Shown here piece by piece: positions 3,397 to 60,549 of a stretch of DNA of 64,000 bases (positions are counted from its first letter, which is position 1; every line of letters begins with the position of its first letter). Both the position numbers and the translations under genes were made by a program. The DNA is from Patescibacteria group bacterium. GTDB taxonomy: Bacteria; Patescibacteriota; Minisyncoccia; Phycocordibacterales; PALSA-1337. The notes under the pieces are model-generated. The model searched no databases. It was not told the DNA's origin and saw only the letters and a list, made by a program, of their open reading frames with translations. Location: the NCBI GenBank assembly GCA_038065415.1, contig JBBTRA010000002.1, positions 13,646-77,645 of the forward strand, written 5' to 3'.

Positions 3397-3639
3397 ATGT
3401 CAAAAAGACAGCTTCTGATAGTGCTCGGTATATGGAACATGGCGTTCCTCTTTCTCGGCTTCCCGGCAGCGGCGGACAAGATTTTTGCCCTCGCTTCTGG
3501 AGCCATTATTCTTACGATCGCAGTGGCGATGAAACCTAGGGAGAAGATAGCGCCAAAGGGTCCTGTTCCGTTCGTTGACCATAAGGTTCCCGTTGCAGAA
3601 GCACACATTACCAACACTGATGCATCGATGAGTTCATGA
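3397..3639 (+). CDS. Small membrane protein (80 aa, two predicted TM helices)
   Basis: Internal Met113 of track ORF 3061..3639 (ATG 3397); MSKRQLLIVLGIWNMAFLFLGFPAAADKIFALASGAIILTIAVAM…; fills gap between 3353 and 3636; stop overlaps next start (ATGA). Confidence 0.35.
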   Translation: MSKRQLLIVLGIWNMAFLFLGFPAAADKIFALASGAIILTIAVAMKPREKIAPKGPVPFVDHKVPVAEAHITNTDASMSS

Positions 3640-4907
3640 TACGGCTTTGGCGTGAGGGCGGATCGACACGCACCACGATCGTGATCGTGGCAGCTTTTAT
3701 TATAGTTGTAGGTTTGATTGTTGCGCTGTGGCGCTTGCCTCTGGGGCGTATTACGTATACGAGTATGGTTGACTCCACGGATTTGTCGGCGGCTGTTGCG
3801 TCATCGACCCCTCTCGTAGAAGTGGCTTCATCGACCCCGGTATGGAAGGCGACACACCTCGATACTCCCGAGGCGGTGAGAGCTGTATACATGACGAGCT
3901 GGGCGGCAGGTAGTCAGAAGTTCAGGAAACACCTTTTCGACCTAGTGGATACGACGGAGATCAATGCTGTTGTTATCGATGTGAAGGATTATACCGGGCG
4001 CATTGCTTTTGATGTTGACGACCCTATGCTCATTGAGACCGGTGCAGTCGAAAGGAGAATACCGGATGTCAAAGAGTTGATCGAAGAACTCCATAAAAAG
4101 GGAGTCTACGTGATTGGTCGCGTCTCTGTTTTTCAAGATTCATATCTCATCAATGTGCATCCGGAGTGGGCGGTCAAGACGAAGGCAGGGGAGATATGGA
4201 AGGACTACAAGGGTGTCAAATGGCTCGATGCCGCAGCAAAGCCTGTATGGGATTATGCTATTGCCATCGGGCATGCAGCCTATGATGTTGGGTTCGACGA
4301 GCTCAATTTTGATTATGTGCGATTCCCGTCAGACGGCAACCTCGAAGATATAGCCTACACATGGGCTGAGGGTAAACAACGCTCCGAGGTTATGAAAGGA
4401 TTTTTTGAGTACGTCCACAATCATTTTTCAGGTACGGGCATACCAACCTCGGTGGATTTCTTCGGACTTACCACGAGTGCGGAGGGAGATCTCGGTATCG
4501 GACAGATACTTGAGCATGGTCTCGAATATTTTGATTATGTTGCGCCGATGGTGTACCCATCTCATTATGGCAAAGGATTCCTTGGATATACCAAACCAGC
4601 TCAGTATCCTTACGAAGTAATCGCATCCTCAATGGGTAGCGCCATCGCCAAGGCCGAGGCAACTACTACTCGCTCAGCTGTGCTTGGTGTGGAGCCGATC
4701 GCTTCTACCACGCCGCAACTCTATACGAAGAAATCGTATGATAAGCGAAAATTGCGCCCCTGGTTCCAAGCATTCGATCTGGGTGCAGTCTATACGCCCG
4801 AGATGGTGCGTAAGCAGATAGAGGCGGCTCATGATCTCGGTCTCGATAGTTGGATGTTGTGGGATGCGGCAAGCGTCTACGACAAGAATGATCTTCTCCC
4901 CAAGTAG
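3636..4907 (+). CDS. Membrane-anchored putative glycoside hydrolase (DUF4015/GH-like TIM-barrel family)
   Basis: N-terminal TM helix then …RAVYMTSWAAGSQKFRKHLFDLVDTTEINAVVIDVKDYTGRIAFD… resembling the 'putative glycosyl hydrolase domain' family; 423 aa. Confidence 0.5.
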   Translation: MIRLWREGGSTRTTIVIVAAFIIVVGLIVALWRLPLGRITYTSMVDSTDLSAAVASSTPLVEVASSTPVWKATHLDTPEAVRAVYMTSWAAGSQKFRKHLFDLVDTTEINAVVIDVKDYTGRIAFDVDDPMLIETGAVERRIPDVKELIEELHKKGVYVIGRVSVFQDSYLINVHPEWAVKTKAGEIWKDYKGVKWLDAAAKPVWDYAIAIGHAAYDVGFDELNFDYVRFPSDGNLEDIAYTWAEGKQRSEVMKGFFEYVHNHFSGTGIPTSVDFFGLTTSAEGDLGIGQILEHGLEYFDYVAPMVYPSHYGKGFLGYTKPAQYPYEVIASSMGSAIAKAEATTTRSAVLGVEPIASTTPQLYTKKSYDKRKLRPWFQAFDLGAVYTPEMVRKQIEAAHDLGLDSWMLWDAASVYDKNDLLPK

Positions 4908-5288
4908 AGGTGTTGTACACTTGCATCTTATTTTATAAGGAGTACCATTTACTTCCGGAAAGTGATACTCATGTACAACGATTGATTCGAGACCAAAGGC
5001 CTTGGTCGTTGTGCGTGCACAAGCAAGTAGTACAACACACAAAATAAAGTTATGGCAAAGGAAATCAAAGGAGCTCGAATCCGTCCGAGCTCAACCGCAT
5101 CTGACATTCTGGGCGGCTACAAGGTCGGGGAGCTTCCTCCGAAGTTCGCCGAACTCGCAGCCTCGCAGGAGCGTCGGGAAAATGCTCAGTCTAGCAGTTC
5201 ACGGCCTTCCACACAAAGAGTCCGTGCACATTGATCCGCCATGACACCTTGATTCCTCCAGCGACTTAGGAAATCGCATGAGAGACCG

Positions 5289-5321
5289 GCCCCCGTGCTT
5301 TTGCAGACGGGGGCTTTCGTT
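5289..5321 (+). terminator. GC-rich hairpin (GCCCCCGT-loop-ACGGGGGC) followed by TTTCGTT; terminator or leader structure
   Basis: Stem 5289-5296 / 5307-5314, loop gcttttgcag; lies 12 nt upstream of the 5333 start codon and downstream of small ORF 5052..5234. Confidence 0.4.
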
Positions 5322-5332
5322 ATGGTACAATA

Positions 5333-7342
5333 GTGTCATATATGGCTCCCGTATCAACTGATGAGAACCGAATAACATACTTTGCCGAGACTGATGCGCG
5401 CAGCAAACGCCTCAAATTTGGCATCAAAGCCAAGGATCGCACTCGCCACGTCTACGTCATCGGTAAGACGGGTATGGGAAAGTCGACTCTGCTCGAAAAT
5501 ATGGCGGTACAGGACATTCAGACTGGTGAAGGGATGTGCTTCATTGACCCTCACGGTAAGACTGCTGACCTCATGCTTGAATATGTTCCCAAGGAACGCA
5601 TTCGTGATGTGATATATATTGCTCCGTTCGATTTGGATCACCCGATCTCATTTAACGTGCTCGAGAGTGTGGATGCAACCAAGAGGCACCTCGTCGTCGG
5701 TGGTCTCATGAGTACCTTCAAGAAGATCTGGGAAGATGCGTGGTCGGCGCGTATGGAGTACATCCTGACCAACACACTCCTCGCTCTTCTTGAAGCTCCC
5801 AACACTACGTTGCTCGGGGTGAATCGTATGCTGTCTGACAAGGCGTACAGGAATGAGATTGTCTCGCATGTCACTGATCCGTCGGTCAAATCATTCTGGG
5901 TCAAGGAGTTCGCCAACTATACCGAGCGTATGGCAGCTGAGGCGGTACCAGCTATCCAGAACAAAGTCGGTCAATTCACCGCAAATCCCCTCATCAGGAA
6001 TATGATCGGACAAGCGCAGTCGTCGTTCGATTTCCGCAAAGCCATGGATGAACGCAAGATCATCATCATCAACCTTTCGAAGGGAAGGATCGGTGATGAG
6101 AATATGAAGCTCCTCGGGGGACTTCTGGTTACCAAGATATATCTTGCTGCGATGTCTCGCGCCGATGTTCCGGACCGCGTCATGAAGATGCTCCCCAACT
6201 TCTATCTCTTTGTGGACGAATTCCAGAACTTCGCCAACGCCTCATTTGCGGACATTTTGTCCGAAGCTCGCAAATACAAACTCAATCTGACTATCGCGCA
6301 TCAGTATATCGAGCAGATGGATGAGGTAGTCCGTCCTGCCGTGTTCGGTAACGTGGGAACCATGATAGCCTTTCGCGTCGGCGCGACCGATGGGGAGGTA
6401 TTCGAGAAGGAATTTGCTCCAGTTTTCGTACTTGAGGATCTGGTTAACCTAGGCTTCGCGCAGATTTACCTCAAACTCATGATCGATGGGTTGAGCTCAT
6501 CTCCATTTTCAGCAACGACATTGCCACCGATACCACATCCAGATACTTCGTATGTGGAGGAGATTATCGCTGCTTCGCGAGAGCAATTCTCGCGTCCACG
6601 TGCAGAAGTCGAAGAGCTGGTTGCCCGCTTCCACGATTCTACACCAGCCGTGAAGAAGATTGAGGCCTTGGGCGATCGCGAGAAGCCGTCACCAAAAGTT
6701 GGGTCTACTTCAATGGCGGCTGTCTCTGCGGCGCCTCGACCCCCAGTAGAAGCGCAGAAATCGACAACGCCAGTGCCACGGCCTCTCGTGGTCTCAAAAC
6801 CTGTTGTAGCAGTTCCAAAACCACCGCTCGAAGGACATTCCAGCCTGAAGGATGCACTTACTTCAGTTATTTCAAAGCCAAAGTCAGTGATTGAAGCACC
6901 AAAGCCTGTTGTTGAAGTTCAAAAACCTGCCCCTGTAATTCCCGTTGCTCCAGTACCTCCTGTGGTTGCCCATGCGGTTGCTCCTGTGTCCAAGCCGGTT
7001 GTTCAGGTTCAAAAAGCACCTGTAGAAATTCCAAAACCAGTGTCGCTCTCAGCTCTCGCACCAAAGCCACAAACACCTCGACAAGATCCAAAGGCTCAAT
7101 CAAAAGAGAATGTAAGCAGTCTCAAGAATGCTTTGGCAGCTGCCATGGCGAAGAAGGGGGATAGTGCTCCACAAGTAGCGAATGTTCAGCCCCTCAAGTC
7201 TCTCGAAAATCTTAAACAGGTGCCCAAGGCTCCGTTGGTAGATTCCAAACCTCCTCAGGCAAATACTGCACACACAACACCAAAACAGGTTCCGCATGAG
7301 GTTCCCGAAGATGTCCTGAAGCGGGTATTGAAAGTAGACTGA
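5333..7342 (+). CDS. VirD4/TraD/TrwB-like P-loop NTPase (type IV secretion coupling-protein DNA-binding-domain family) with C-terminal Pro/Val/Lys-rich low-complexity tail
   Basis: Walker A VIGKTGMGKSTLLEN, Walker B LFVDEFQNFA, …LTIAHQYIEQM…; no N-terminal TM segments; residues ~440-669 are repetitive KPVV/PKP/VQKP low-complexity (…KPVVAVPKPP…APKPVVEVQKPAPVIPVAPVPPVV…). Confidence 0.55.
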   Translation: MSYMAPVSTDENRITYFAETDARSKRLKFGIKAKDRTRHVYVIGKTGMGKSTLLENMAVQDIQTGEGMCFIDPHGKTADLMLEYVPKERIRDVIYIAPFDLDHPISFNVLESVDATKRHLVVGGLMSTFKKIWEDAWSARMEYILTNTLLALLEAPNTTLLGVNRMLSDKAYRNEIVSHVTDPSVKSFWVKEFANYTERMAAEAVPAIQNKVGQFTANPLIRNMIGQAQSSFDFRKAMDERKIIIINLSKGRIGDENMKLLGGLLVTKIYLAAMSRADVPDRVMKMLPNFYLFVDEFQNFANASFADILSEARKYKLNLTIAHQYIEQMDEVVRPAVFGNVGTMIAFRVGATDGEVFEKEFAPVFVLEDLVNLGFAQIYLKLMIDGLSSSPFSATTLPPIPHPDTSYVEEIIAASREQFSRPRAEVEELVARFHDSTPAVKKIEALGDREKPSPKVGSTSMAAVSAAPRPPVEAQKSTTPVPRPLVVSKPVVAVPKPPLEGHSSLKDALTSVISKPKSVIEAPKPVVEVQKPAPVIPVAPVPPVVAHAVAPVSKPVVQVQKAPVEIPKPVSLSALAPKPQTPRQDPKAQSKENVSSLKNALAAAMAKKGDSAPQVANVQPLKSLENLKQVPKAPLVDSKPPQANTAHTTPKQVPHEVPEDVLKRVLKVD

Positions 7343-7344
7343 AG

Positions 7345-8547
7345 ATGTGGAAGTATGGAGATATGAATACCTCCTCTGGGAACACTCGACCGAAGCGTGT
7401 ACTCATATTCTCTCTTGTATATTATCCTCGCACGATCGGCGGGGCAGAAGTCGCTGTAAAAGAGATCGCTGATCGTATCAGTCCATCTGAGATTGAGTTC
7501 GACATGATCACGCTCCGCAAGCATGCGCCTGCATTCGACCGTGTTGGTACCATCAATGTCCATCGTGTCGGGTTGCCGTGGATCGGCAAGAATACCCGGA
7601 GCTCAAAGCTTTTTCCGCTATCAAAAATCCTCTACATCCCGCTGGCTGGACTCAAGGCGATCTCGCTTCACAGAAAAAATAATTATGATGTCCTGTGGCC
7701 GATCATGGCGAGCTATGCTGGATTCTCCACACTTATATTCAGGGCATTTTTCCCGAAGGTGCCGGTCCTCCTCACTATACAAGAAGGAGACAACTTTGAG
7801 TGTCGTACAGGTGTTCTTGGTTACTTTTTCAGAAAGATATTCAAGAGTGCTAATCAGATTCAAGCCATATCGAACTTTCTTGCTGACTGGTCGAAGGACA
7901 TGGGTGCGACATGTCCGGTAACCGTCATTCCAAATGGTGTTGATGCTGATGTTTTTTCAAAAAAAATATCAGACACTGAAGCACAGGCTCTCAGAGATAA
8001 GCTTGGTAAGAAAACCGGCGATATATTCCTCGTGACCACTTCTCGCCTCGTTCCTAAAAATGGCATAGCTGATGTGATAGCTGCGCTTGAGCATCTTCCG
8101 GTGAATGTGAAGTTTTTGATTATTGGCAGTGGTCAACTGGAGGAGAGTCTCAAGTCACAAGTAGCAAGTAGCAAGTTGGAAGACAGGGTGATCTTTGGTG
8201 GCTTCATGCCGCACGAAGAAATGGCAAAATATGTACAGGTCTCTGATATCTTCATCCGCCCATCGCTGTCTGAAGGTCTGGGCAACTCATTCCTGGAAGC
8301 GATGGCTGCTGAAATACCTGTGATTGCCACCCCTGTTGGAGGTATACCGGATTTCTTGGTCGATGGTGAGACTGGCCTCTTTTGTGATGTGAGCAGTCCC
8401 AAGAGTATTGCCCAGAAGGTGGAGAAGCTCATCAAGGATCGTGAGTCGCGCGACTACATGGTCAGGAACGCGAAGAAGATGGTTGAAGAGAAATATGGAT
8501 GGAAGGGGATTGCTGAGGAGATGAAGAGGTTAATGATCAAGATTTAA
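7345..8547 (+). CDS. Glycosyltransferase family 4 (GT-B, retaining)
   Basis: EX7E motif region EGLGNSFLEAMAAEIPVIATPVGGIPDFLVDGETGLF; N-terminal …YPRTIGGAEV…. Confidence 0.7.
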   Translation: MWKYGDMNTSSGNTRPKRVLIFSLVYYPRTIGGAEVAVKEIADRISPSEIEFDMITLRKHAPAFDRVGTINVHRVGLPWIGKNTRSSKLFPLSKILYIPLAGLKAISLHRKNNYDVLWPIMASYAGFSTLIFRAFFPKVPVLLTIQEGDNFECRTGVLGYFFRKIFKSANQIQAISNFLADWSKDMGATCPVTVIPNGVDADVFSKKISDTEAQALRDKLGKKTGDIFLVTTSRLVPKNGIADVIAALEHLPVNVKFLIIGSGQLEESLKSQVASSKLEDRVIFGGFMPHEEMAKYVQVSDIFIRPSLSEGLGNSFLEAMAAEIPVIATPVGGIPDFLVDGETGLFCDVSSPKSIAQKVEKLIKDRESRDYMVRNAKKMVEEKYGWKGIAEEMKRLMIKI

Positions 8548-9549: not shown

Positions 9550-10653
9550 CTACGCCTTCGCAAATTCCTGCTGTCTCTCTTTTTCTTCTTGCGAACGCAG
9601 TCCGTCACGCCCCGCCCTGTAATCTTCTGAGATCTTCGGATCTGGAGGTGTATCTTTGACGATTGCCTTGAGCATTTCTAGCCAGAATGAGAGGCGTAGT
9701 TTGGTAAGCTCACGCAGGTCGCCCGAGGTCTTTTCGAGTGATGTTGCGTAATAGCTGAGCAGGTACCCGATCTTGTAGATACGCATCAGGCGAAGATCAA
9801 GATGCTCATTCTCACCACGATTGACTCGGATATATGAACTGAGCACCTTCTCCAGTGCAGGATTGTGAATGAGCATATAGTTGAGGAAGCGTGCCCAGCC
9901 TTCGTACTTATTGCCAAAATGAACTGCAGAACAGTCGAGCATGTATAGTGCATGGTCTTGCACGCGGAAGTTGTGCGGTACGAAATCGGTATGCGTTAGG
10001 TAGTTGGCATACTTGGCGAGGGTGGCGGAATTTGACTCGAGCAACTTGAGGGCGTCGGCGAGAGGTTGTGGATCAGCCTTGATTTCAGTGAGTGCGGGAC
10101 GCATTTTTTCTGGGAATGCCTTGAATGATTCGATATATTTTTCCGAGCTGAAAACAGTGAAGTTCTTCTGGATTGTCTTGAGATGTTCGAAGGTCGTCGC
10201 ATGGAATGATTCTTGTGCCTCGAATGCACGCAAGATGAGGAAGAATTGCTCTTCAGTGCTGTGATCTACGAAAACTTTGTCCTGGGGGACATATTCCGCG
10301 ATCCAGAACATATATCCGCTCTTCGTGCCGGAATACATTTCTGCAGGGAAGAGAATATACTCAGAAGCAAAGTCGATCGACATGAGGGTATCGCGAGCCG
10401 TCTTTTCTGCGATGATCTCCTTCTGTCCGTCAGGATGATTGCTCGCCTTAACGATGACTGCTTTCTTGTCGGAGGTCCGTATGGCTGCGAGTACGAGTTT
10501 GTTGCGGGTCATGAGATATCTCTCGCCACTCACGTGCGGCTGGTGCTCGTCGAGCTCGTAGCCGAGCGGCTTGAGCAGAGCGGATATGTTCGAGAGCTGG
10601 CCGGCGACATACTGCTTCCAGTCTGCTTCGGAGTGCATTGATTTCATCACCAT
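9550..10653 (-). CDS. Kinase-fold protein (aminoglycoside/choline-kinase-like phosphotransferase family)
   Basis: Catalytic-loop-like HTDFVPHNFRV and …YMLDCSAVHFGNKYEGWARFLNYML… resembling APH/CotS-type HxDxxxxN … D motifs. Confidence 0.45.
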   Translation of the reverse strand: MVMKSMHSEADWKQYVAGQLSNISALLKPLGYELDEHQPHVSGERYLMTRNKLVLAAIRTSDKKAVIVKASNHPDGQKEIIAEKTARDTLMSIDFASEYILFPAEMYSGTKSGYMFWIAEYVPQDKVFVDHSTEEQFFLILRAFEAQESFHATTFEHLKTIQKNFTVFSSEKYIESFKAFPEKMRPALTEIKADPQPLADALKLLESNSATLAKYANYLTHTDFVPHNFRVQDHALYMLDCSAVHFGNKYEGWARFLNYMLIHNPALEKVLSSYIRVNRGENEHLDLRLMRIYKIGYLLSYYATSLEKTSGDLRELTKLRLSFWLEMLKAIVKDTPPDPKISEDYRAGRDGLRSQEEKERQQEFAKA

Positions 10654-15691: not shown

Positions 15692-15794
15692 ATGAGGTGA
15701 GCAGGGCTTCTCTGGAGCCTACGCTAGCACGACGGAGCGGCCTCAGACAATGCCGCCGTACACAAAAAATCGAAATAGTGTACTATTACATGAT

Positions 15795-16814
15795 ATGAGA
15801 ATCCTCATTGCTTCAGGTATATATCCACCAGATATCGGCGGGGCGGCGCAGTATGCCCGCAATCTCTATGAGGCGTGGAAGTCTTCGGGCAACGACGTCA
15901 AAGTTGCCGCCTACCGTTGGGAGCGCGCATTCCCGCCACTGGTGCGTCACATACTCTTTTTCCTCAAGATTATCCGTAAGGGTTGGAACGCCGACCTCAT
16001 CCTTATTCTCGATACCTGGAGTGCTGCTGTTCCGGCGATGTATGCATGCAAGCTCATGCGCAAGAAGTATCTCATTCGCACCGGAGGAGACTTCTTATGG
16101 GAGAGCTATACTGAGCGAACTGGCGATCTGGTTTTGTTCAGGGATTTTTATTCAACAAGCATGAGCAAGCTCTCAACCAAAGAGAAGCTGGTGTTCAAAC
16201 TTGGAGGTGATGCTCTGCGCGGTGCAGCAAAAATCATATTCAGTACTTCGTGGCAAAAAGAAATATTCGAAAAAGCATATACTCTCGACTCGCACAAGAG
16301 CGTCATTATCGAGAATTATTGTGGCGAACGTGAGCCTACGGTAGAGCCAGAAAATCGTATGTTCGTTGCTGGTACTCGTCCGCTCAAATGGAAGAATGTG
16401 GAGTTCCTCAAAGAGTGTTTTACTGAAGCCAGTGACGCATTGCAGAAGCTTGGTCTCGAACCTATAGAGCTCGATTGTGGAAAGGCGGTGTATGACAGCT
16501 TCCTGGAGAAGATTCATCGTTCCTATGCCGTGATCCTGGTGTCTCTGGGTGATATCAGTCCAAATATGATCTTTGACGCAGTAAAATGTGGCACGCCGTT
16601 CATCGTCACGCAGGAAATCGGTATCCGCCATCGTATCGAGGATGCCGCACTCTTTGTGGATCCGAAAAATAAGAAGGATATCGTGGACAAGATCATATGG
16701 CTCGCAGATCCGAAGAATAGGGCGATACAAGCGGGGAAAGTGAGAGGTTTGTCATTTACCCATTCCTGGGCTCAGATAGGTAGTGAGATTGTCGAGGTGT
16801 GGAAGAGTTTGTAA
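15795..16814 (+). CDS. Glycosyltransferase (GT-B fold, GT4-like)
   Basis: Start at internal Met (ATG 15795): MRILIASGIYPPDIGGAAQYARNLYEAW (same N-terminal pattern as 12790 gene). Confidence 0.6.
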   Translation: MRILIASGIYPPDIGGAAQYARNLYEAWKSSGNDVKVAAYRWERAFPPLVRHILFFLKIIRKGWNADLILILDTWSAAVPAMYACKLMRKKYLIRTGGDFLWESYTERTGDLVLFRDFYSTSMSKLSTKEKLVFKLGGDALRGAAKIIFSTSWQKEIFEKAYTLDSHKSVIIENYCGEREPTVEPENRMFVAGTRPLKWKNVEFLKECFTEASDALQKLGLEPIELDCGKAVYDSFLEKIHRSYAVILVSLGDISPNMIFDAVKCGTPFIVTQEIGIRHRIEDAALFVDPKNKKDIVDKIIWLADPKNRAIQAGKVRGLSFTHSWAQIGSEIVEVWKSL

Positions 16815-18328: not shown

Positions 18329-19027
18329 ATGAAACTTTCCATAGTCATCCCTGCGTATAACGAAGAAAAGACAGTCGAAAAGATCCTGGCTGCGGTCGAT
18401 GCGGTCGTATTGCCAGGAGGTATAACCAAGGAGATTATCGTCGTTGATGATTGTTCCAAGGACAAAACATTTGAGGTGCTCCAGAGTCTCCAGAAGAGGT
18501 ACAACCTTATTTTGTCCCGTCATGCCATCAACCAGGGTAAGGGTGCTTCAGTTACCGATGGTATACGTATTTCGACGGGTGATGTAGTGGTTATACAAGA
18601 TGCTGATCTTGAATACGACCCGAAGGAGTTTTCACTTCTCTTGGAGCCGATACTTGCAGGCGATGCTGATGTGGTCTACGGTTCGCGCTTCATCAGCAAT
18701 CGTCCGCACCGCGTGCTCTATTTCTGGCACTCTATGGGCAATAAGTTTTTGACCCTGTTCTCCAACATCTTCACTGATCTCAATATCACCGATATGGAGA
18801 CCTGCTACAAAATGTTCACGAGGAAAGTCGTTGATGATATCAAGGACAAGTTGGTCTCCAAGAGATTTGGCATCGAGCCGGAGATTACGGCACGGGTCAA
18901 GAGATATCGTATATACGAAGTAGGTATTTCATACAAAGGCAGAACGTACGCTGAAGGCAAGAAAATCGGCTGGAAGGATGGATTCTCTGCGCTCTGGTGC
19001 ATCATCCGCTTCAATCTATTCGCATGA
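18329..19027 (+). CDS. Glycosyltransferase family 2, polyprenyl-phosphate sugar synthase-like (GtrB/DPM1-like)
   Basis: Start at internal Met (ATG 18329): MKLSIVIPAYNEEKTVEKIL…VVVDDCSKDKTFEV…VIQDADLEYDP… (DxD). Confidence 0.75.
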   Translation: MKLSIVIPAYNEEKTVEKILAAVDAVVLPGGITKEIIVVDDCSKDKTFEVLQSLQKRYNLILSRHAINQGKGASVTDGIRISTGDVVVIQDADLEYDPKEFSLLLEPILAGDADVVYGSRFISNRPHRVLYFWHSMGNKFLTLFSNIFTDLNITDMETCYKMFTRKVVDDIKDKLVSKRFGIEPEITARVKRYRIYEVGISYKGRTYAEGKKIGWKDGFSALWCIIRFNLFA

Positions 19028-20145
19028 CTTCATTTTTGAAGGCTCATTGGCATTGGTGTGCGATTGCGCTGACAATGCTCGCATCGATGGCACTTGTCTT
19101 CTCAGTCAATGGTTTTTTTGATACACGTATAGACGCGCGTATCTATGCCGCGCAAATATCTTCATTTGAGAGTGGTGATGTATTTTCGGGTGACCCACAT
19201 GTGATCATGCGCCTCTTCAAACCGCTCTACGGCATCATTGGTGGGTGGATATTCCAGTCGACACATCCTTATGGCATGATCCTGGGGCTCAATATATTTT
19301 TTTACGCCATTCTCGCTTTTTTCGCGTATCGTATCTTCAAAGCACTTGATTTCTCTGAAAGAGAATCGGTCGTCGGAACACTCTGGATAGTCACCGCATA
19401 TCCTGTCCTCAAATATGGTCTTGCACTGGGTACCGACATGTCGGGCTGGGCCTTGGCGGCAGTAACGGTGGCTATTGGTCTCGTTGCGATCAAGAAAGAT
19501 TCAAATTTTTTGTTGGCACTTGCTTCGGTTGCTGGATTTCTAGGAGCGGCAACAAAAGAGACGGGCCCGCTCGGACTGGGTGCGATCGGATTGTTGGTCG
19601 TGTGGACATATAGGAAACAGGGGATCAAGATTCTTGCTACTCGGTTGGCATCCGTATGTCTGCCATTCATTATTTTGTATGGAGTATTGTTTGCTACTAT
19701 TTCAGGCAGTGCCCCTACACTCTTCGACTGGTTCAATGCCAATACAACAGAGTATAGCGGCAAAGGCACGTATTCTGTAATCAAACTTGTCGCTGTTGCA
19801 GGCTCTACATTTGGTCTGTACTGGCTTGGTGTTGTGTATGCGATACGCATGATGATACGGGAACGACGAATGTTCGATCACATCGGCTATATTGTCGGGG
19901 CATTGATTGCTACTCTGCCGATACTTATGTGGCCGCTGTTTATTTCGAGAATAGTGTTCATACAATTTTTGTGGGTCATGCCACTTGCGCTCTACGGCTA
20001 TCGGGTGATGTCTGGTCGTATTCAGAGCAGGTATCCTGAAAAAGGAAAGATCATCATGATATTCGTTGCACTCGTTCCTATCGTGTTTAGTGCAGCGCTT
20101 TTCTTGGTTGGCGCGCGAGGCTCGCTCTTTACTTTGATGCATTGA
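19024..20145 (+). CDS. Polytopic membrane protein, putative GT-C-fold glycosyltransferase (third component of GtrA/GtrB module)
   Basis: ATGA overlap with preceding gene; ≥9 hydrophobic helices; first loop …DTRIDARIYAAQISSF… resembles the DExRY-type motif of ArnT/PMT-like GT-C enzymes. Confidence 0.45.
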   Translation: MTSFLKAHWHWCAIALTMLASMALVFSVNGFFDTRIDARIYAAQISSFESGDVFSGDPHVIMRLFKPLYGIIGGWIFQSTHPYGMILGLNIFFYAILAFFAYRIFKALDFSERESVVGTLWIVTAYPVLKYGLALGTDMSGWALAAVTVAIGLVAIKKDSNFLLALASVAGFLGAATKETGPLGLGAIGLLVVWTYRKQGIKILATRLASVCLPFIILYGVLFATISGSAPTLFDWFNANTTEYSGKGTYSVIKLVAVAGSTFGLYWLGVVYAIRMMIRERRMFDHIGYIVGALIATLPILMWPLFISRIVFIQFLWVMPLALYGYRVMSGRIQSRYPEKGKIIMIFVALVPIVFSAALFLVGARGSLFTLMH

Positions 20146-26365: not shown

Positions 26366-28270
26366 TTAGGGAACTATAGCATAGAGGCGGATATGGGTGT
26401 CACGCTTCTGATCGTAGTATTCATAAACCTTCATCCCGTAGTCTAGGAAGTACTGAGCCGTGCGAAGCTTGGCTACCTCATCGCGCATCCATGGATTCCC
26501 CCTGGTCTTGGTATCGTCGATGAAGTAGCGGACATTCATTTCCTGGAGGCAGGTACGAATTGCAGCATCGTCATTCGTGGAGCAAAAGTCATCGATATAC
26601 GAGTTGCCGTTTTTCATCGAATAGCGGTAGAAGACGTTCCAGTACTCGAGAACCTTCTCATCCTTCAAATGCGTATTGATATAGTCGGTCACATAGATAG
26701 CGCCGCCTTCTATCTCACGGAAACAGGTATTGCGGTCACGTAGACCAGTCGCGCAGACGATCTCTTTCTTGAATGATACGATGCTTGCGCCGAGGAGGGT
26801 GAGGGCGATGACGATGAGTAGGTGAGGTACTACCTTCTTCGCGTATGAGATATAAATTGAGCCTTTGTCAGCGATGGACTTCATGAGGACATCGAGTGCG
26901 AGGACCAGGAAAATATTATTCAATATGAGGGCGGGGATTATGAAACGTATCTGGTGCGACCAGATGAATACGAACGCAAGGTATATCTCCAGTGCAACCA
27001 GTGTATAGAGAAGAATCCCGCGCAGATTGCGTTTGAAGGCCAGGTATATTGCGAGAGCATATGTCGCCATGAAGCTGACTGATAGGAATATGCCGAAGGG
27101 CAGGTGGTAGGTCTCTTTGCCGAAAAGGTAGAAGGGAAAGATGAAGAAGTTGTACCAGGTCTTGTTGAGTATGAAAGCATTGACCTCCACAGTGAACTCC
27201 ACACCTCCGCCAGCGGCGAATATAGGAAAAAAAGGATTTCCTGTCAGTATGAGGTTCTTGATATACCAGAAGCCGCCAATAATGAGTGCCGACAGGAAAT
27301 ATATGCCGCATACCTTGGCAATGTGCACAGCAGGTTCTTTATGGAGCCTTGATATCAAGATGATCTCAATCAGGCCTATCGCACCGAAGAAGAGTGAGAG
27401 GTATTTGATTCCGAGTCCCAGGCCGAGAAGCGCGCCGGCAAGAATGACACCGGGGTATGCTGTGCGAAGGTGCTCATGCGCTATGTGCCTCCTGGAGAGA
27501 GTGTCTATGAGTAGGAGGAGGCTAGCGATACTGAAAAGGAACGACCATATATCTATCATGCCGCCGCTGAGTGCATTGCGGGCCAATGGCATACAGGCGA
27601 GGAGGAGTATCACGGTCAGGTAGGTGAATCTTTTGTCGGTGAAATATCGGTGTGATAGAAGGGCAGCAAAAATAATGAGTAAGAGGTATGCGGCAAACTC
27701 GATGAGCTTGGAAACGCCCAGATTGTCGAAAAGGACGATAGTGACTGCGTAGAGGATTTCGCCAAGAACAGGGAGTTGGCCGTATTCGGGGTCCTCCATG
27801 ATGGGGAATGAAATAGGTTCACCGCTCGCTATCTCTGCGGAGAACGGTAGATGATATGCGAGACCATCTTTACCCATTGCTGATGCGGAGAGTGCTATGC
27901 CGGTATATATGATGGTCCAGGCGATGAGTATGAAGAGTAGGACGGATTCTACCTTTGTTTTTGGGATGAGTTTCTTCATCGTGTGCTTCCATGATTTGAA
28001 GCCAGCAAGTAAGTGCACATGGTAATAAATCGTCTTTCTAGAGATATAGAGGATGATGATCGTTATTAGACCGAGCCAAAAGATGTTCAAGATGCCAAAA
28101 AGGGAAAGCATCAATCCGACCATTGCGACGGCTCCATAGCCGAGAATAAGCGATACGGTGCTATGAAGTAGCACCTCTTTGCGCCAACAGATTGCCTTGA
28201 GGAGCGACCTTCCGAGAAGGAATGAGATGTAGCTGAATATGAGTGTTTGAATAATATAGAGAAACCACAT
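26366..28270 (-). CDS. Large polytopic membrane protein (634 aa) with C-terminal soluble domain; candidate GT-C glycosyltransferase/polymerase
   Basis: >12 hydrophobic helices across residues 1-470; C-terminal ~150 aa hydrophilic; no confident family motif. Confidence 0.4.
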   Translation of the reverse strand: MWFLYIIQTLIFSYISFLLGRSLLKAICWRKEVLLHSTVSLILGYGAVAMVGLMLSLFGILNIFWLGLITIIILYISRKTIYYHVHLLAGFKSWKHTMKKLIPKTKVESVLLFILIAWTIIYTGIALSASAMGKDGLAYHLPFSAEIASGEPISFPIMEDPEYGQLPVLGEILYAVTIVLFDNLGVSKLIEFAAYLLLIIFAALLSHRYFTDKRFTYLTVILLLACMPLARNALSGGMIDIWSFLFSIASLLLLIDTLSRRHIAHEHLRTAYPGVILAGALLGLGLGIKYLSLFFGAIGLIEIILISRLHKEPAVHIAKVCGIYFLSALIIGGFWYIKNLILTGNPFFPIFAAGGGVEFTVEVNAFILNKTWYNFFIFPFYLFGKETYHLPFGIFLSVSFMATYALAIYLAFKRNLRGILLYTLVALEIYLAFVFIWSHQIRFIIPALILNNIFLVLALDVLMKSIADKGSIYISYAKKVVPHLLIVIALTLLGASIVSFKKEIVCATGLRDRNTCFREIEGGAIYVTDYINTHLKDEKVLEYWNVFYRYSMKNGNSYIDDFCSTNDDAAIRTCLQEMNVRYFIDDTKTRGNPWMRDEVAKLRTAQYFLDYGMKVYEYYDQKRDTHIRLYAIVP

Positions 28271-28271
28271 G

Positions 28272-29315
28272 TTATTTGAGGCGTGCAGATATCACTATGC
28301 AGTCGCCGCTCTGGAGAAGATCCACGATACGGTTGCAAAGGGAGATGAGATTGAGAACTAGAAGATATACAGCTCTTTTCAGGACGGATTTGAGTTTTGC
28401 AGGGAAGCCATGGTTTTTCGAAGGTTTTTCCTGGGAAGCTGCTGCATCTTTTTGTTCGTATGCCCACAAAGGATTCTTCATGCCTTGCTGAGGTGTGAAG
28501 CGGAGACGATTGAGCGTATGGATCATCCATGTGGTCGGACTCACTGTCCTCTTTGAGATGACCTCAAAGCCATGGCGCGCGAGCAAGATGCCGATCGCAC
28601 GTGAGGTCAAAATGTGTTGGTGATAGGGGATGTGCCAGTGCGCCCATGCCCGACCGAATATCCTGCGATATATGCTGTCAGCATTGGGTGTACTGAGGAT
28701 GAGTGTGCCATTCTTCACCATGAATTGTTTTGTATGAGCAATGAAGCTCTCAAGATCGATGATGTGTTCGATGACTTGGTTGGCGATGGCATAGTCGAAA
28801 GTGCCTTGAGGAAAAGGACAATCTTCGATCGTACCGATGTGGAGATTGAGCTTAAGGGCGTCTCGGACTATGGATATGTTCTCATCTGTTTCTATGCCGT
28901 ATGCTTCAAATCCACGTCGCTCGAGTTCGATGAGCGATGCGCCGTCACCACAGCCAATGTCGAGGACTCTCTTGCTGTCGCCCTGAAGCGGGAGCATATG
29001 CTGTATCTTGTGGTTGCCATACCACCAATACATGAAGCGCTGATGGAGTGTCTCAGACCTGTTGCCGCGAGCTTCGACAGACTGTAGGTCGATGATGTGA
29101 CGAGGATAGTAGTCGGTGTAGAGTGGTCCGATATCTTCTGGTTTGAGTGGTGGTTCGGTCGTGAGCGTGCCGCAGGAATGACATCGCATGATGGAATACG
29201 ATCCGGGGTGGCCATAGCGGTCATCGTAGATGTGGGGGATGTAGGGGACAGTGGGGCTGCTACAGACAGGGCATGGAGATGAAGCCACTAAATTTTTTTT
29301 GGTGGATGTGGTCAT
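28272..29315 (-). CDS. SAM-dependent methyltransferase with N-terminal Cys4 zinc-ribbon
   Basis: CPVCSSP…CHSCGT then …VLDIGCGDGASLIELERRGFEAYGIE…FDYAIANQVIEHIIDL…. Confidence 0.6.
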   Translation of the reverse strand: MTTSTKKNLVASSPCPVCSSPTVPYIPHIYDDRYGHPGSYSIMRCHSCGTLTTEPPLKPEDIGPLYTDYYPRHIIDLQSVEARGNRSETLHQRFMYWWYGNHKIQHMLPLQGDSKRVLDIGCGDGASLIELERRGFEAYGIETDENISIVRDALKLNLHIGTIEDCPFPQGTFDYAIANQVIEHIIDLESFIAHTKQFMVKNGTLILSTPNADSIYRRIFGRAWAHWHIPYHQHILTSRAIGILLARHGFEVISKRTVSPTTWMIHTLNRLRFTPQQGMKNPLWAYEQKDAAASQEKPSKNHGFPAKLKSVLKRAVYLLVLNLISLCNRIVDLLQSGDCIVISARLK

Positions 29316-30703
29316 GTGGTTCTACGTTTCAAGGCTAGCTCTATCGGACGTATCACGCAATATGCGCTATAAGCCTTCGATTCTGCATTGGTCTTGCCAT
29401 AGAGCTCTCCCATACCTAGATGTCTGAGTAGGCCGTATATTTTGGGGATTGACAGTATTTTTTGCACTCCTTTTTTCCAAGCAAGTTTCTTATGAGCCTT
29501 CGTAAGGGTTGAATTTATCGAGCGAACATAGGCAGGATCGAGTACTTCTCCGAGGATCGCCTCATCGAGTGGAGGCAGCTGACCTTCCTGTATTATCTGG
29601 AGATTGAGAGTGTTATTGCCATCACAGGTGAGACCATCATTTTCGATATCGAGTTTGTGATCTGCAAAGTATTTCTTTTGCCATGATCGGCCAGAGCGTT
29701 CATCTGCTCCGATTGAGAGCATACCGAGTGCAACTTCTGGATCGAGGAAGGGAGACCATGGTTTCCAGGAAAAATGCTCGGGAATCTGATAGAGATAGGT
29801 GAGCAGAATGAGCTTCATACGGGCAAAAAGTATTGGTTGGTAGAATGAGTCATTTATCCTGTTTTTGTGGCGCTCGAAATACGCGGTTCGAAGTGCACGA
29901 TCTGATTTCAGAAGAGATTTGGTATGGTCAGCATGGTCTCCGTGATTACGGGACAAGTTGACGAGGTCACCCTCCGAAGTAATGGGATCAAAATGCACAT
30001 GTCCCGCCCAGAGGTCCCCGATGATGCCACTCAAGAATGCCTGTGCTCCAGGAGCGCTCTTCTTGCGAACTTCTCCGAAGAAATCTAGATGATACATGCC
30101 GTGTGCGTGCACCGCGGGTCCGAACATACCATCCCATTCTTTGAGATATGCTTGAGAATTATGAAGAGGGATGAAGCTCCATTCGAACCCGAGGCGTTTG
30201 GAGGTTTCTGCTGCTCGTATCACTTCGCAGGAACGATGCTGTTCTTCAGATGTGCCATAGGTGAATGCACGCACGCGTGCAGGTTCGCCCAGCATGCTGC
30301 CGAGCAAGCGTGAATCGTAACCACCACTCAAAGGAAGGGTGATAGGTCCCTCGATGCTTTTTTCCCATGTTCTGACTTTGTCTGTGAGTAGGGCAGTCAT
30401 TTCTTCCGGAGTACATATACGCCTATCCGCTGACTCGATCGGGTCAGGAAGCTTTTCTATGAACAATTTTCCTGACTCATCGACGGTGATACGTTCACAT
30501 GCTCCGAGGAATTTTACGTCCTGTATAGGCGTCTGTCCGAAGACCGAGTAGCCAAATTCGAGATAGTTGTTGAAGCCTTCAGGATGGAGCGTCAAATTAG
30601 AATAGTTGATGACGTCGTGTATCGAATGACTCACGGCACCTGTCTTCTCGTTGTAGAAGACAGGTCGCGATGCTAGCCAATCTGTTTCAAAGGTCTTCTT
30701 CAT
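29312..30703 (-). CDS. Asparagine-synthetase-like PP-loop ATP pyrophosphatase (amidotransferase candidate, no obvious N-terminal glutaminase Cys)
   Basis: PP-loop ITLPLSGGYDSRLLGSMLGE (cf. AsnB SGGLDSS); start placed at MKKTFETDW (1 nt after upstream stop); alternative upstream starts would overlap DUF362 gene. Confidence 0.5.
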   Translation of the reverse strand: MKKTFETDWLASRPVFYNEKTGAVSHSIHDVINYSNLTLHPEGFNNYLEFGYSVFGQTPIQDVKFLGACERITVDESGKLFIEKLPDPIESADRRICTPEEMTALLTDKVRTWEKSIEGPITLPLSGGYDSRLLGSMLGEPARVRAFTYGTSEEQHRSCEVIRAAETSKRLGFEWSFIPLHNSQAYLKEWDGMFGPAVHAHGMYHLDFFGEVRKKSAPGAQAFLSGIIGDLWAGHVHFDPITSEGDLVNLSRNHGDHADHTKSLLKSDRALRTAYFERHKNRINDSFYQPILFARMKLILLTYLYQIPEHFSWKPWSPFLDPEVALGMLSIGADERSGRSWQKKYFADHKLDIENDGLTCDGNNTLNLQIIQEGQLPPLDEAILGEVLDPAYVRSINSTLTKAHKKLAWKKGVQKILSIPKIYGLLRHLGMGELYGKTNAESKAYSAYCVIRPIELALKRRTT

Positions 30704-30704
30704 A

Positions 30705-35770: not shown

Positions 35771-36835
35771 TTATACCGCCTTTCGGGGCCTGAATATATT
35801 GATAATAGGCTGCAAAAATGGCCTGATGAGATCCTTGAACGCCCACCACCAGAGAGGGAAGGCGACAGTCTTCAGCTCATCCGAAATACCTGTACGCTGG
35901 ATAGTTCCGGCGATAAAATCGGGCTGTATCATGCGGATGGTTTTCATCGCCTTGTAGAGCTCGTTGCGGTACTGATTATAGATGAGCCTTTTGATGAAGG
36001 TTGGTTTACCATAGTTGTGAGCCGTCTTGGCTATAGAGACCCTGAACGGTGATGGCAGAAAATATATTTTGAAGCTTGAGAAATGGAAAAAGATGAGTGG
36101 AACATCATCGATCATTACTACTCCATTTTTACGGTATATTTTGTCCTTGAAATTGCCAATGCACCATGGGGCGAGATTGGATCCCTTGTGGGTGAGAATG
36201 TAAACGCCTTTGAATTTTTCTTCAAAAAAGTCGAGATACTTCTGATCGCCAAAACGGTCAGGTTCTACTCGCGCGTAACACCATTCGATACATTTGTCGC
36301 TCCACCAGGTTAGACATGCTCGACCATCGTCATCGTTTCTGAAAATCACCATGCCGACATTGTATTTCCCCACATCCTTCTCTTTGTGGCGACGATTCTC
36401 TGGGTGATTGTGTGGAATGATAAGAGTCGAATTGTTCCCGAAGAGGTCAAATATAGGCTGTACCGATGAATAGAAGTAAAGGTCGGCGTCGACGTAGATG
36501 ACGAGTTGAGACGCATCACCTGGATCTGTATAGTTTTTCATTACATGCTGAGTGAATCCGCTTCCGAGCGTCCAACAGTATTCTTCGAGAGTTCTGGTTT
36601 TTTTCGTGGCGGCAATCGCTGGCTCTTTTTGTTCGAATTCAACACGACTTACGAGAGTGACGCGTGGTAGCGCGAGTTTCGTGAGTAATGCATGAGATTC
36701 TTCGTCAACGCAGAGGATATAGAGTTGGAAAGGCTGGGGTGCATATCTTATGAGCGACGCATGAAGTGCGAGTCCACGATTGGTGAATCCTTTATCGAAC
36801 AATGTTACGTAGAGATGCTTCATGATTTTTTGCAT
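35771..36835 (-). CDS. Putative GT-A-fold glycosyltransferase (DxD: …IYVDADLYF…)
   Basis: MQKIMKHLYVTLFDKGF…; 1-nt gap to rfbB start; no confident family. Confidence 0.4.
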   Translation of the reverse strand: MQKIMKHLYVTLFDKGFTNRGLALHASLIRYAPQPFQLYILCVDEESHALLTKLALPRVTLVSRVEFEQKEPAIAATKKTRTLEEYCWTLGSGFTQHVMKNYTDPGDASQLVIYVDADLYFYSSVQPIFDLFGNNSTLIIPHNHPENRRHKEKDVGKYNVGMVIFRNDDDGRACLTWWSDKCIEWCYARVEPDRFGDQKYLDFFEEKFKGVYILTHKGSNLAPWCIGNFKDKIYRKNGVVMIDDVPLIFFHFSSFKIYFLPSPFRVSIAKTAHNYGKPTFIKRLIYNQYRNELYKAMKTIRMIQPDFIAGTIQRTGISDELKTVAFPLWWWAFKDLIRPFLQPIINIFRPRKAV

Positions 36836-57943: not shown

Positions 57944-58059
57944 TCGTACTCAAGTGTCTCGGCTGTTTCGAAGAAGAACCAAGACACATGAGCAGGATTA
58001 CTCATGAGATCGAAGACAGAATTATCAAGGATCGAATTTATATCATAAGCATTATTACC

Positions 58060-58731: not shown

Positions 58732-58761
58732 CGAAGCGTCTTTACACTTCACATCACTACC

Positions 58762-59748: not shown

Positions 59749-59755
59749 ATCAACC

Positions 59756-60544: not shown

Positions 60545-60549
60545 AACTC

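Follow-up and report, generated by a model that had tools for sequence, protein, structure and literature searches.

The window analysed here, a 64,000-nt stretch of Patescibacteria DNA, encodes a protein that is probably (with a probability of roughly 0.6) a cytoplasmic ATPase from the type IV coupling protein (VirD4/TrwB) branch within the FtsK-HerA superfamily, a member of a family detached from conjugation and a motor with a tethering tail. The gene is genuine. Its coding sequence (5342..7342, + strand; 666 aa plus the stop codon) lies in a single long ORF (5333..7342, + strand), as the first-pass annotation had reported. The mechanical ORF opens at GTG 5333. ATG 5342 is the likely translation start, because close homologues all open with MAPVSTDENR and an identical protein (P0001), present in public databases, is annotated as 666 aa.

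The ATPase contains a conserved core and a long C-terminal tail. The core (residues 1-435; 5342..6646, + strand) is predicted to be a P-loop nucleotide-binding domain into which an all-alpha domain is inserted, and its columns are >90% identical in an alignment of 119 homologues. Specifically, Walker A GKTGMGKS (residues 41-48; 5462..5485, + strand) is invariant in three alignments and aligns to the P-loop of TrwB. Walker B FYLFVDE (residues 287-293; 6200..6220, + strand) aligns to TrwB LFIDEL, with D292 and E293 conserved at at least 90% in the alignments. The AHQYIEQ motif (residues 319-325; 6296..6316, + strand) is aligned with TrwB ...GLQSTSQL, with Q321 and Q325 conserved to the same degree (at least 90%), and is the counterpart of the glutamine motif conserved among coupling proteins. 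The Walker motifs and the TIAHQYIEQM segment noticed on first reading are therefore all present, as GKTGMGKS, FYLFVDEF and ...TIAHQYIEQM....

The structure of the core was modelled with AF2 from an alignment of 142 more diverse sequences, with a pLDDT of 90.5. An earlier full-length model, built from 24 close homologues, reached a pLDDT of 50 and was kept out of the fold comparison. The all-alpha insertion domain (residues 112-236; 5675..6049, + strand), whose absence would have spoken against a coupling protein, is found in the core model. It contains eight helices as assigned by DSSP on the model (112-129, 136-151, 159-165, 167-174, 180-192, 195-214, 216-222 and 231-236), is flanked by strands 90-93 and 240-244, and lies between the strand next after Walker A and the one heading to Walker B. 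In a Foldseek search, the best matches of the core model are TrwB, Cag-beta and DotL, over ~420-440 columns, with TrwB at an E-value of 3e-13 and a TM-score of 0.62-0.64. Residues 1-435 are thus confidently modelled as a VirD4/TrwB-type coupling-protein fold. No hydrophobic segment was found in residues 1-435 by Kyte-Doolittle analysis. The top mean over a 19-residue window is 1.53 and is located in the Pro-rich tail, which agrees with the earlier statement that the protein has no N-terminal anchor.

Profile searches point to the same family. The Pfam models TrwB_AAD_bind, T4SS-DNA_transf, DUF87 and TraG-D_C all match, each only slightly over its gathering score (31.2, 28.5 and 24.1 bits for the domain models against cutoffs of 20.5, 20.1 and 22). 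A sequence-profile search of the PDB returned coupling proteins only (TrwB, 4e-7; DotL, 4e-5), which bears out the initial family call. Among the NCBIfam TraD/VirD4 models searched, none came near its cutoff. The widest NCBIfam match is to the CD1115-family VirD4-like model NF045973 (residues 33-350 against profile positions 20-358, E 4.7e-11), which at 42 bits is far under its cutoff of 250, and there is no sign of a conjugative element here.

VirB4 (Thermoanaerobacter, 4ag5) is structurally similar to the core as well, but in its C-terminal ATPase domain only, with a TM-score of 0.52 versus 0.62 for TrwB. The ATPase lacks the VirB4 N-terminal domain, its P-loop being ~40 residues from the protein start, and no VirB4 profile is near threshold (NCBIfam matches of 12-15 bits against cutoffs of 590-1020). 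Fold likeness by itself cannot tell VirD4 apart from DptH or from the C-terminal domain of VirB4.

The ATPase thus resembles the type IV coupling proteins TrwB, VirD4, Cag-beta, DotL and TraD both in its P-loop domain, which bears the Walker A, Walker B and glutamine motifs, and in the all-alpha domain between Walker A and Walker B. Like TraD and DotL, it is extended at the C-terminus, and the extension might recruit partners. Its identity to solved coupling proteins is only 14-16%, however, and it differs from type IV coupling proteins in three respects: it has no N-terminal transmembrane domain, its gene is not encoded with a type IV secretion system (T4SS) or a relaxase, and it is chromosomal, near-universal in one phylum and conserved to a degree similar to SecA. 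Unlike TrwB-type proteins, it and its homologues carry a Pro/Val/Ala/Lys-rich tail of 147-328 aa with motifs of its own.

The tail (residues 436-666, 231 residues; 6647..7339, + strand) is a linker rich in Pro (17%), Val (16%), Ala (13%) and Lys (12%). Among the 119 homologues it is 35% identical, versus 88% for the core, and its length differs as widely as the range given above. Its pLDDT in the full-length model is below 50. The tail is therefore probably a disordered, fast-evolving linker. It had been described on first reading as an extreme repeat tract serving as a spacer; the biased composition and the variable linker stand, whereas the repeat does not, and there are conserved short motifs inside. 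The label 'repeat tract' was discarded after Tandem Repeats Finder found no tandem repeats in the tail DNA.

The 119-homologue alignment defines two conserved islands in the tail. The first (residues 565-605; 7034..7156, + strand) has the consensus KPVSLSxLAPK..PRxDPK..NVxxLKNALAAxxAK, and its second half is a predicted helix (residues 588-603, pLDDT up to ~80 in the full-length model). The second is the C-terminal peptide (residues 651-666, EVPEDVLKRVLKVD; 7292..7339, + strand), a conserved sequence predicted to form a short amphipathic helix, with the consensus EVPEDVLKxVLKVD at the extreme C-terminus. VP[ED] occurs inside the last 30 residues of 106/120 close homologues; the remaining 14 have close variants of the motif, save one truncated sequence. 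Many homologues of 68-75% identity have E-[IV]-[PS]-E-[DE]-x-L-[KR]-x-h-L at this position, at times followed by a few residues.

The ATPase has more than 8,000 close homologues, which, where named, are from Patescibacteria, Parcubacteria or Paceibacterota, and 6,063 clusters at the 50% identity level match it at E <= 1e-30. The earlier word 'orphan' thus fits the gene neighbourhood and not the protein itself. In 80 species-representative genomes, the median identity of the core is 72.7%, with 46%, 60% and 46% for the neighbouring genes DUF4015, RsmI and GT4, respectively. Compared with SecA, the core is 73% versus 66% identical between near relatives, and 56% versus 55% for one more distant relative. 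In these few comparisons, the core diverges about as slowly as SecA. VirD4-type homologues have been found in 2,918/3,035 Patescibacteria genomes (96%) (PMC12102498). Near-universality, rarity near virB4 and possible exaptation are already known from the same 2025 paper (PMC12102498). The gene already carries the annotation of a T4SS DNA-binding-domain protein, its orphan status is published, and the gene itself would not surprise specialists.

Relatives of the ATPase in other lineages are linked to a domain of ~350 aa with an N-terminal membrane helix, DUF8128. Specifically, DUF8128 is fused to, or directly followed by, the ATPase in 74/75 metagenomic loci, and also in loci L086-L091. A sigma-region-4/HARE-HTH DNA-binding protein is encoded within 700 nt upstream in 45/64 DUF8128-type loci. 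The DUF8128-linked ATPases, fused forms included, are 45-57% identical over the whole core to the ATPase here (56% for L086 and L088, residues 7-430), and the core is by this measure an orthologue or paralogue of theirs. They are found in Saccharimonadia, Microgenomates, Berkelbacteria and other Patescibacteria, are likewise chromosomal, and also have long tails of low complexity in which short L-[KR]-x-x-L-type motifs occur. Whereas these relatives are anchored via DUF8128, the ATPase here instead follows DUF4015. No DUF8128 homologue was found in the reading frames of the window or within 10 kb in 80 related loci. Similarly, no sigma-4/HARE-HTH homologue was found in the reading frames of the 64-kb window, and the 80 related loci gave one marginal match (L063, E 0.0012, 17 bits, ~7 kb downstream of the ATPase gene). 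A DUF8128 profile gave one spurious low-complexity match only against solved structures; NCBIfam has no model of DUF8128, and no mention of it was found in the literature. The association with DUF8128 and sigma-4/HARE-HTH elsewhere, and the replacement of DUF8128 by DUF4015 in this lineage, are new here.

The strongest alternative, which we consider possible and on balance rather unlikely, is that the ATPase is the coupling protein of a chromosomal T4SS (monoderm MPF-FATA-like) whose gene is simply remote from the virB4 genes. Effector proteins or DNA would be recruited by the ATPase and passed on to the channel, and its tail would be an adaptor-binding extension like those of DotL and TraD. 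The fold and the profile matches point to coupling proteins, and some systems are known in which the coupling-protein gene is away from virB4. A T4SS is present in ~80% of Patescibacteria genomes (PMC12102498), and the T4SS cluster of Southlakia has no recognisable coupling protein of its own, leaving a vacancy for the ATPase (PMC10633639). On the other side, the genomes with a VirD4-type homologue (2,918) outnumber those with VirB4 (2,417/3,035), only 148/5,713 VirD4-type homologues are near virB4, and the homologue of Southlakia is not essential although its T4SS genes are (PMC12102498). Conservation similar to that of SecA is also unusual among coupling proteins. The dispensability of this Saccharimonadia homologue in co-culture, the only genetic datum, fits awkwardly with SecA-level conservation and counts against our preferred reading as well. 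In the loci examined, the conserved neighbours are DUF8128 with sigma-4/HARE-HTH, or DUF4015, and never T4SS genes. Consistent with the first-pass statement that no VirB-type gene is nearby, no T4SS, pilus or relaxase family was found in the window among the ORFs of at least 150 aa that were scanned with Pfam, which are a part of all ORFs, and no T4SS or relaxase genes were seen in related loci with annotated neighbours. There is no second related ATPase among all reading frames of at least 50 aa in the 64-kb window, and no tRNA or Rfam family in it. Independence of the ATPase from T4SS is what these observations suggest; a DUF8128 gene or a T4SS elsewhere in the genome could be its partner.

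The neighbours in the window are those named on first reading; the glycoside-hydrolase-like gene is upstream of the ATPase gene, and GT4 is downstream. The upstream gene (3636..4907, + strand) matches Pfam DUF4015 at 1e-93, and its product has one N-terminal membrane helix, with the hydrophobic stretch TIVIVAAFIIVVGLIVALW. The GT4 glycosyltransferase gene (7345..8547, + strand) begins 2 nt past the ATPase stop codon and opens a glycan-synthesis region of ~40 kb. Further neighbours encode an inositol monophosphatase and sugar enzymes, with Mur ligase, MraY and MurB genes nearby. A small ORF between DUF4015 and the ATPase (5052-5234) is conserved only in identical contigs, and is therefore probably not a gene. 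The DUF4015 neighbour hints at the cell envelope and not at DNA, which counts against our preferred reading.

These neighbours suggest a second alternative, which we regard as doubtful at best, namely that the ATPase, the DUF4015 wall-glycan hydrolase-like protein and the peptidoglycan and glycan clusters share an envelope process. One form of it would be that passage of a macromolecule through the wall is powered or gated, as with a T4SS ATPase and a VirB1-type hydrolase. DUF4015 is directly upstream of the ATPase on the same strand in 52/62 loci, and the pair is kept in L172 and L173, at 64-68% core identity and in otherwise different surroundings. The two genes are often 19-110 nt apart, and the close GT4 start and the Mur ligase, MraY and MurB genes fit the same process. 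Firmicutes have fusions of DUF4015 with a regulator domain of wall-modifying enzymes (PMC12700454). However, DUF4015 is predicted to have its catalytic domain outside the membrane, with only ~14 residues remaining in the cytoplasm, so direct contact with the ATPase is unlikely. DUF4015 is also missing from all 80 DUF8128-type loci; its link to the ATPase is therefore lineage-specific. Moreover, adjacency of the two genes is weak evidence because gene order in Patescibacteria is generally conservative.

In addition, a strong hairpin and a −10-like element (5289..5331, + strand) separate DUF4015 from the ATPase in this window. Read directly from the sequence, the hairpin is a perfect, GC-rich 8-bp stem (5289-5296 paired with 5307-5314) followed by TTTCGTT, and TGgTACAAT at 5323-5331 ends 10 nt ahead of the ATG. 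A promoter consensus scan there gave the hairpin in a weaker form and no promoter with both hexamers complete, and the function of both elements is putative.

Much less probable is a third alternative, in which the ATPase is a DNA motor of the FtsK or HerA type that serves chromosome segregation or repair and is brought by its C-terminal peptide to the division site or to a nuclease. The layout of linker and C-terminal peptide is reminiscent of the tails of FtsZ or SSB, and cell-wall synthesis genes adjoin the ATPase gene. However, neither FtsK nor HerA, which the first-pass annotation had named as the hits that would count against its call, reaches E <= 0.01 in the PDB profile search, and the Pfam FtsK_SpoIIIE profile scores 12 bits, far under its cutoff of 24. 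The set of features expected of FtsK/SpoIIIE (motor profile and fold, gamma domain and N-terminal membrane segments) was not found, nor was a HerA core with its usual NurA, Sir2 or DUF4297 partner; specifically, the neighbourhood annotations contain no NurA-like protein. Two observations further weaken the idea of an FtsK substitute: the C-terminal motif is out of register with the peptide of FtsZ, and one Saccharibacteria genome carries an annotated ftsK of its own.

The remaining alternative, an anti-phage defence component like mad8 of the MADS operon or DptH, is rejected as very improbable: mad8 is the top PADLOC match (4.5e-16, 57 bits, residues 23-356), but PADLOC matches the ATPase alone, the other seven genes of the MADS operon are missing, next to it there is neither a further mad or dpt gene nor a methyltransferase-nuclease set nor any hallmark of a mobile element, neither conserved mad/dpt partners nor a patchy strain distribution is seen, and its near-universal occurrence, stable chromosomal position and slow divergence are a core-gene pattern, the opposite of how defence genes behave.

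The preferred reading of a motor detached from conjugation suggests the following mechanism. The ATPase would be the Paceibacteria-lineage form of a near-universal chromosomal Patescibacteria family, whose usual form is fused to, or encoded behind, the membrane-anchored DUF8128 domain. It keeps the nucleotide-binding and all-alpha substrate-binding domains and lacks a membrane anchor itself. It may assemble into a ring, as the analogy with TrwB, Cag-beta and DotL suggests, and ATP would drive the engagement and movement of a polymer at the inner face of the membrane. The substrate would more likely be DNA, with protein as the alternative. The long flexible tail would serve as a tether, and its two conserved, predicted helical peptides may attach the motor to a partner or bring in substrate, like the C-terminal extensions of TraD and DotL; conservation and this analogy are what point to a docking role.

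On first reading the ATPase was proposed to be co-opted for competence or a surface appendage, a putative role that the findings neither favour nor contradict. The competence set reported for Patescibacteria comprises ComEC, ComFC and DprA, and a ComFA-type ATPase is not listed. Tentatively, the ATPase, membrane-anchored DUF8128 and sigma-4/HARE-HTH may constitute an undescribed, near-universal and T4SS-independent core machine of Patescibacteria, possibly the missing cytoplasmic DNA-uptake motor, that is remodelled here, although we hold this to be unlikely. If it is true, the lineage here would have dropped DUF8128 and tethered the motor via peptide motifs on the ~230-residue tail, and would have coupled the ATPase gene to a wall-glycan hydrolase gene.

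Patescibacteria account for much of bacterial diversity, and with their tiny genomes they rely on other cells. An ATPase that is present in ~96% of their genomes (PMC12102498) and, in the few comparisons made here, conserved like SecA is unlikely to be a relic of conjugation; instead, it should mark a core process, plausibly DNA or protein trafficking at the membrane, that is central to the Patescibacteria lifestyle. The analysis turns a bare HMM match into testable parts, namely a structural model of high confidence, DUF8128 as the partner domain of most lineages, its replacement in one lineage, and two short conserved tail peptides usable directly as baits. Saccharibacteria are now genetically tractable, and these questions are thus open to experiment.

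The ATPase gene occupies one long open reading frame (ORF) on the plus strand of the window (5333..7342 in the ORF scan), whose translation contains a Walker A motif (GKTGMGKS), a Walker B motif (FYLFVDEF) and the motif TIAHQYIEQM. A public protein of 666 residues, P0001, from a Patescibacteria-group MAG, is 100% identical to the window protein and carries the annotation 'type IV secretion system DNA-binding domain-containing protein'; assembly GCA_964357625.1 likewise encodes this 666-residue protein on one of its contigs. Because P0001 and all close homologues begin with MAPVSTDENR, the start codon is most likely the ATG at 5342 rather than the GTG at 5333.

Four Pfam families match the protein just above their gathering scores, namely TrwB_AAD_bind (31.2 bits), T4SS-DNA_transf (28.5 bits), DUF87 (25.4 bits) and TraG-D_C (24.1 bits); all three profiles suggested by the first-pass annotation are among them. 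No NCBIfam model comes near its own cutoff, the widest match being the CD1115 VirD4-like family (42 bits against a cutoff of 250). Searches of PDB sequences with the single protein and with a 47-sequence profile returned coupling proteins only (TrwB, 4e-7; DotL, 4e-5), aligned at the P-loop and Walker B regions. The structure of residues 1-440 was predicted from an alignment of 142 sequences (A4; 45-86% identity) with pLDDT of 90.5 and pTM of 0.89; an earlier prediction from a shallow alignment had pLDDT of 50. The model contains a RecA-type core and an eight-helix all-alpha insertion (residues 112-236) between strands 90-93 and 240-244, so the all-alpha domain on which the coupling-protein assignment depended is present. 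Fold comparison of the model places the ATPase in the VirB4/VirD4 branch of the FtsK-HerA superfamily, and within this branch both the sequence-profile searches and the global superposition point to coupling proteins of the VirD4 type. The coupling-ATPase call holds, its best matches being neither FtsK nor HerA. An N-terminal membrane anchor is a defining feature of coupling proteins, but the window ATPase lacks one, as had been read from the sequence; its most hydrophobic 19-residue segment (1.53) lies in the Pro-rich tail. It is a soluble ATPase of the VirD4 branch that has the all-alpha domain.

The ATPase belongs to a phylum-wide chromosomal family that is conserved about as strongly as SecA. 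A word-indexed search gave at least 8,000 matches, the best 120 of which are 62-100% identical to the window protein; named sequences among these 120 are from Patescibacteria, Parcubacteria or Paceibacterota. An exhaustive search of cluster representatives matched 6,063 clusters at a cutoff of E <= 1e-30 and 22,212 when the cutoff was relaxed to E <= 1e-3. Across 80 species-representative genomes, median identity to the window's proteins is 72.7% for the ATPase core, 60% for the RsmI-like methyltransferase, 46% for both DUF4015 and GT4, and 44% for the ATP-grasp protein. The ATPase diverges in step with SecA: on the same contigs, SecA is 66% and the ATPase 73% identical in near relatives, and the values are 55% and 56% in the more distant locus L086.

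The C-terminal tail (residues 436-666) is variable and carries conserved peptides. It consists of 17% Pro, 16% Val, 13% Ala and 12% Lys. The first-pass annotation had described an extreme low-complexity repeat tract; the compositional part of this description stands, and the repeat does not, since Tandem Repeats Finder reports nothing in the tail-coding DNA. Among 119 homologues, tail length varies (147-328 residues, median 221), and the alignable tail is 35% identical compared with 88% for the core, while the share of Pro, Val, Lys and Ala is held at about 50%. Two islands are conserved, residues 565-605 (KPVSLSxLAPK..PRxDPK..NVxxLKNALAAxxAK) and the last 16 residues (EVPEDVLKxVLKVD), and short helices are predicted within both in the shallow-alignment model (pLDDT 50). 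Many homologues of 68-75% identity share the terminal motif, E-[IV]-[PS]-E-[DE]-x-L-[KR]-x-h-L; in more distant subfamilies the conserved peptide at the C-terminus is another one, h-x-P-G-[EQ]-x-h-x-F. A slow folded domain, a fast linker and conserved terminal peptides suggest the layout of a tethered docking motif. In some family members the disordered tail contains a zf_Tbcl_2 zinc ribbon, CxxC...CxxC (...FKPDGxRPxYCxxC...) (Pfam; L086 9299-10921, L087 7123-8988, L172 3239-5215), which is absent from the window protein.

Upstream of the ATPase gene, Mur ligase and MraY genes (to the left of the window, on the same contig) and an ATP-grasp gene lie on the opposite strand, followed on the plus strand by genes for an RsmI-type methyltransferase and DUF4015. 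The DUF4015 protein has one N-terminal membrane helix, and because three arginines precede this helix its hydrolase-like domain is predicted to be extracellular. Between the DUF4015 and ATPase genes are a perfect 8-bp GC hairpin (GCCCCCGT/ACGGGGGC) with a T-rich tail, TTTCGTT (5289-5319), and, 3' of it, a TGgTACAAT element ending 10 nt before the ATG. Because the hairpin separates the two genes and the element lies near the ATG, the sequence suggests a promoter dedicated to the ATPase gene and a very short leader, which would give a nearly leaderless mRNA. No Shine-Dalgarno-like sequence is visible before the ATG (5289-5344), and a consensus scan found no full promoter. A 60-residue ORF annotated publicly in the same gap (5052-5234) has a counterpart in no related locus and is probably not a gene; in locus L003 the gap holds an unrelated ORF of 96 residues. 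GC content is ~0.49 throughout the window, which contains no tRNA and no Rfam family.

DUF4015 is the lineage-specific upstream partner of the window ATPase. Of the 62 related loci with at least 2 kb of upstream sequence, 52 have DUF4015 upstream in the same orientation as the ATPase gene, and the pair is kept at 64-68% core identity despite otherwise different surroundings, for example in the order MurB, DUF4015, ATPase, S41 peptidase (L172) and in yet another arrangement in L173. Downstream, only 2 nt separate the ATPase stop codon from the start of the GT4 gene; both neighbours named in the first-pass annotation are as described. The GT4 gene opens a glycan-synthesis region of about 40 kb (7345-47170) with at least ten GT4, GT2 or GT1-like glycosyltransferase genes, several methyltransferases, sugar enzymes (UDP-glucose-dehydrogenase-like proteins, epimerases, dehydratases and a DegT aminotransferase, sugar-nucleotide enzymes included), a Wzt-type ABC ATPase (41853-43127, minus strand) and an O-antigen-ligase/TPR protein (44957-47170). 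ORFs in this region without a Pfam match, including ones of 634 and 490 residues, lie at 26366-28270, 29312-30784, 9550-10653, 35771-36835 and 38363-39355 (minus strand) and at 15750-16814 and 18997-20145 (plus strand). MurB, SecA and GatB genes lie beyond it. A possible surface-protein gene cluster (56810-62127) encodes an HTH_17 protein (Pfam), a weak, just sub-threshold match to the WxL-interacting-protein peptidoglycan-binding domain (58762-59748) and a 584-residue protein with fibronectin-III and purple-acid-phosphatase-N-like domains (60373-62127). The reading that no VirB-type gene is nearby agrees with the absence of any match to a type IV secretion system (T4SS), type IV pilus or relaxase family among those window ORFs of at least 150 residues that were scanned with Pfam; no second related ATPase occurs among all window reading frames of at least 50 residues.

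In other lineages the usual membrane partner is DUF8128 (Pfam PF26449). Many relatives of 45-57% identity carry an N-terminal extension of 340-460 residues comprising one or two membrane helices and DUF8128. Three layouts occur: fused, with DUF8128, ATPase and tail in a single protein (from sources named Saccharimonadia, Microgenomates and Berkelbacteria, among others); split, with a DUF8128 gene followed by an adjacent ATPase gene (L086-L088, 56% identical to the window ATPase over residues 7-430); and the anchorless form in the window. Scanning metagenomes with the DUF8128 profile identified 80 loci. Of the 75 that extend far enough downstream, 74 have the ATPase core directly after DUF8128, mostly in one reading frame, and DUF4015 is absent from all 80. 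Nine (L092, L093, L094, L096, L099, L101, L103, L107 and L154) hold two tandem modules, both on one strand, and the first of the two is more divergent from the window core (39-44% identity) than the downstream copy (46-51%); this is in keeping with a published mean of roughly two coupling-protein homologues per genome. DUF8128 has no homologue in the window or in the 80 loci of the window's lineage. In loci L090 (9001-11636) and L091 (9001-11654), with DprA and topoisomerase I upstream, the fused protein is divided between two ORFs, with the break at a different position within the ATPase in each locus (520+348 and 635+250 residues); a frameshift, a misassembly or a true gene split could account for this.

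Among loci L086-L091 and L092-L171, the gene for a protein of about 350 residues mostly sits directly upstream of the DUF8128-ATPase module: of 64 loci, 45 have it at a distance of up to 700 nt and 50 at up to 1.4 kb. The N-terminal part of this protein (residues 10-77) is a sigma-70 region-4 helix-turn-helix, and residues 222-282 match an RNA-polymerase-delta-like HARE-HTH domain at 41.9 bits, where the cutoff is 42; L090 7881-8954 is an example. Farther upstream lie SecA/SecD/SecF in one locus group and DprA/topoisomerase I in another. The protein has no homologue in the window, and its queries gave one marginal match in the 80 window-lineage loci (L063, E 0.0012, 17 bits).

By analogy with TrwB, Cag-beta and DotL, the ATPase would assemble into a ring motor, and it would act on DNA or protein at the membrane; its tail peptides may dock to a partner or recruit substrate, as do the C-terminal extensions of TraD and DotL, and it is probably not a conjugation component. 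We assign this overall picture a probability of about 0.6. DNA is the likelier substrate, given the family's ancestry and the fact that other lineages conserve a gene for a DNA-binding protein upstream.

The main alternative, a coupling protein encoded in trans to the Patescibacteria T4SS, is tenable and considerably less probable. VirD4-type homologues number 5,713 in 2,918 of 3,035 Patescibacteria genomes, and VirB4 is present in 2,417 genomes; only 148 of the homologues lie near virB4, relaxases are rare, and in Southlakia epibionticum the T4SS genes are essential but the VirD4-type homologue is not, exaptation being left as a possibility (Quinonero-Coronel et al. 2025, PMC12102498). The essential Southlakia cluster has no recognisable coupling protein or relaxase, and the conserved competence core comprises ComEC, ComFC and DprA, with no ComFA (Wang et al. 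2023, PMC10633639). An envelope role together with DUF4015 is unlikely. In the single mention found in the literature searched, DUF4015 is an enzymatic domain fused to a YkyA domain, and stand-alone YkyA proteins are partners of polysaccharide deacetylases. An FtsK- or HerA-like role is more doubtful still, the FtsK_SpoIIIE score being 12 bits against a cutoff of 24. A role in defence, to which similarity to mad8 and DptH points, is the least probable. The best defence-library match, mad8 of the MADS operon (57 bits, residues 23-356), outscores every Pfam coupling-protein match, which points to mad8 also being a soluble ATPase of the VirD4 branch.

Because the public annotation of the gene is correct and the orphan status of such ATPases is already published, the bare finding is not new. 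As far as could be found, there is no description of the partner-domain pattern (DUF8128 versus DUF4015; DUF8128 has no mention in the literature searched), the anchorless architecture in the window lineage, the quantified conservation of the family or the tail motifs.
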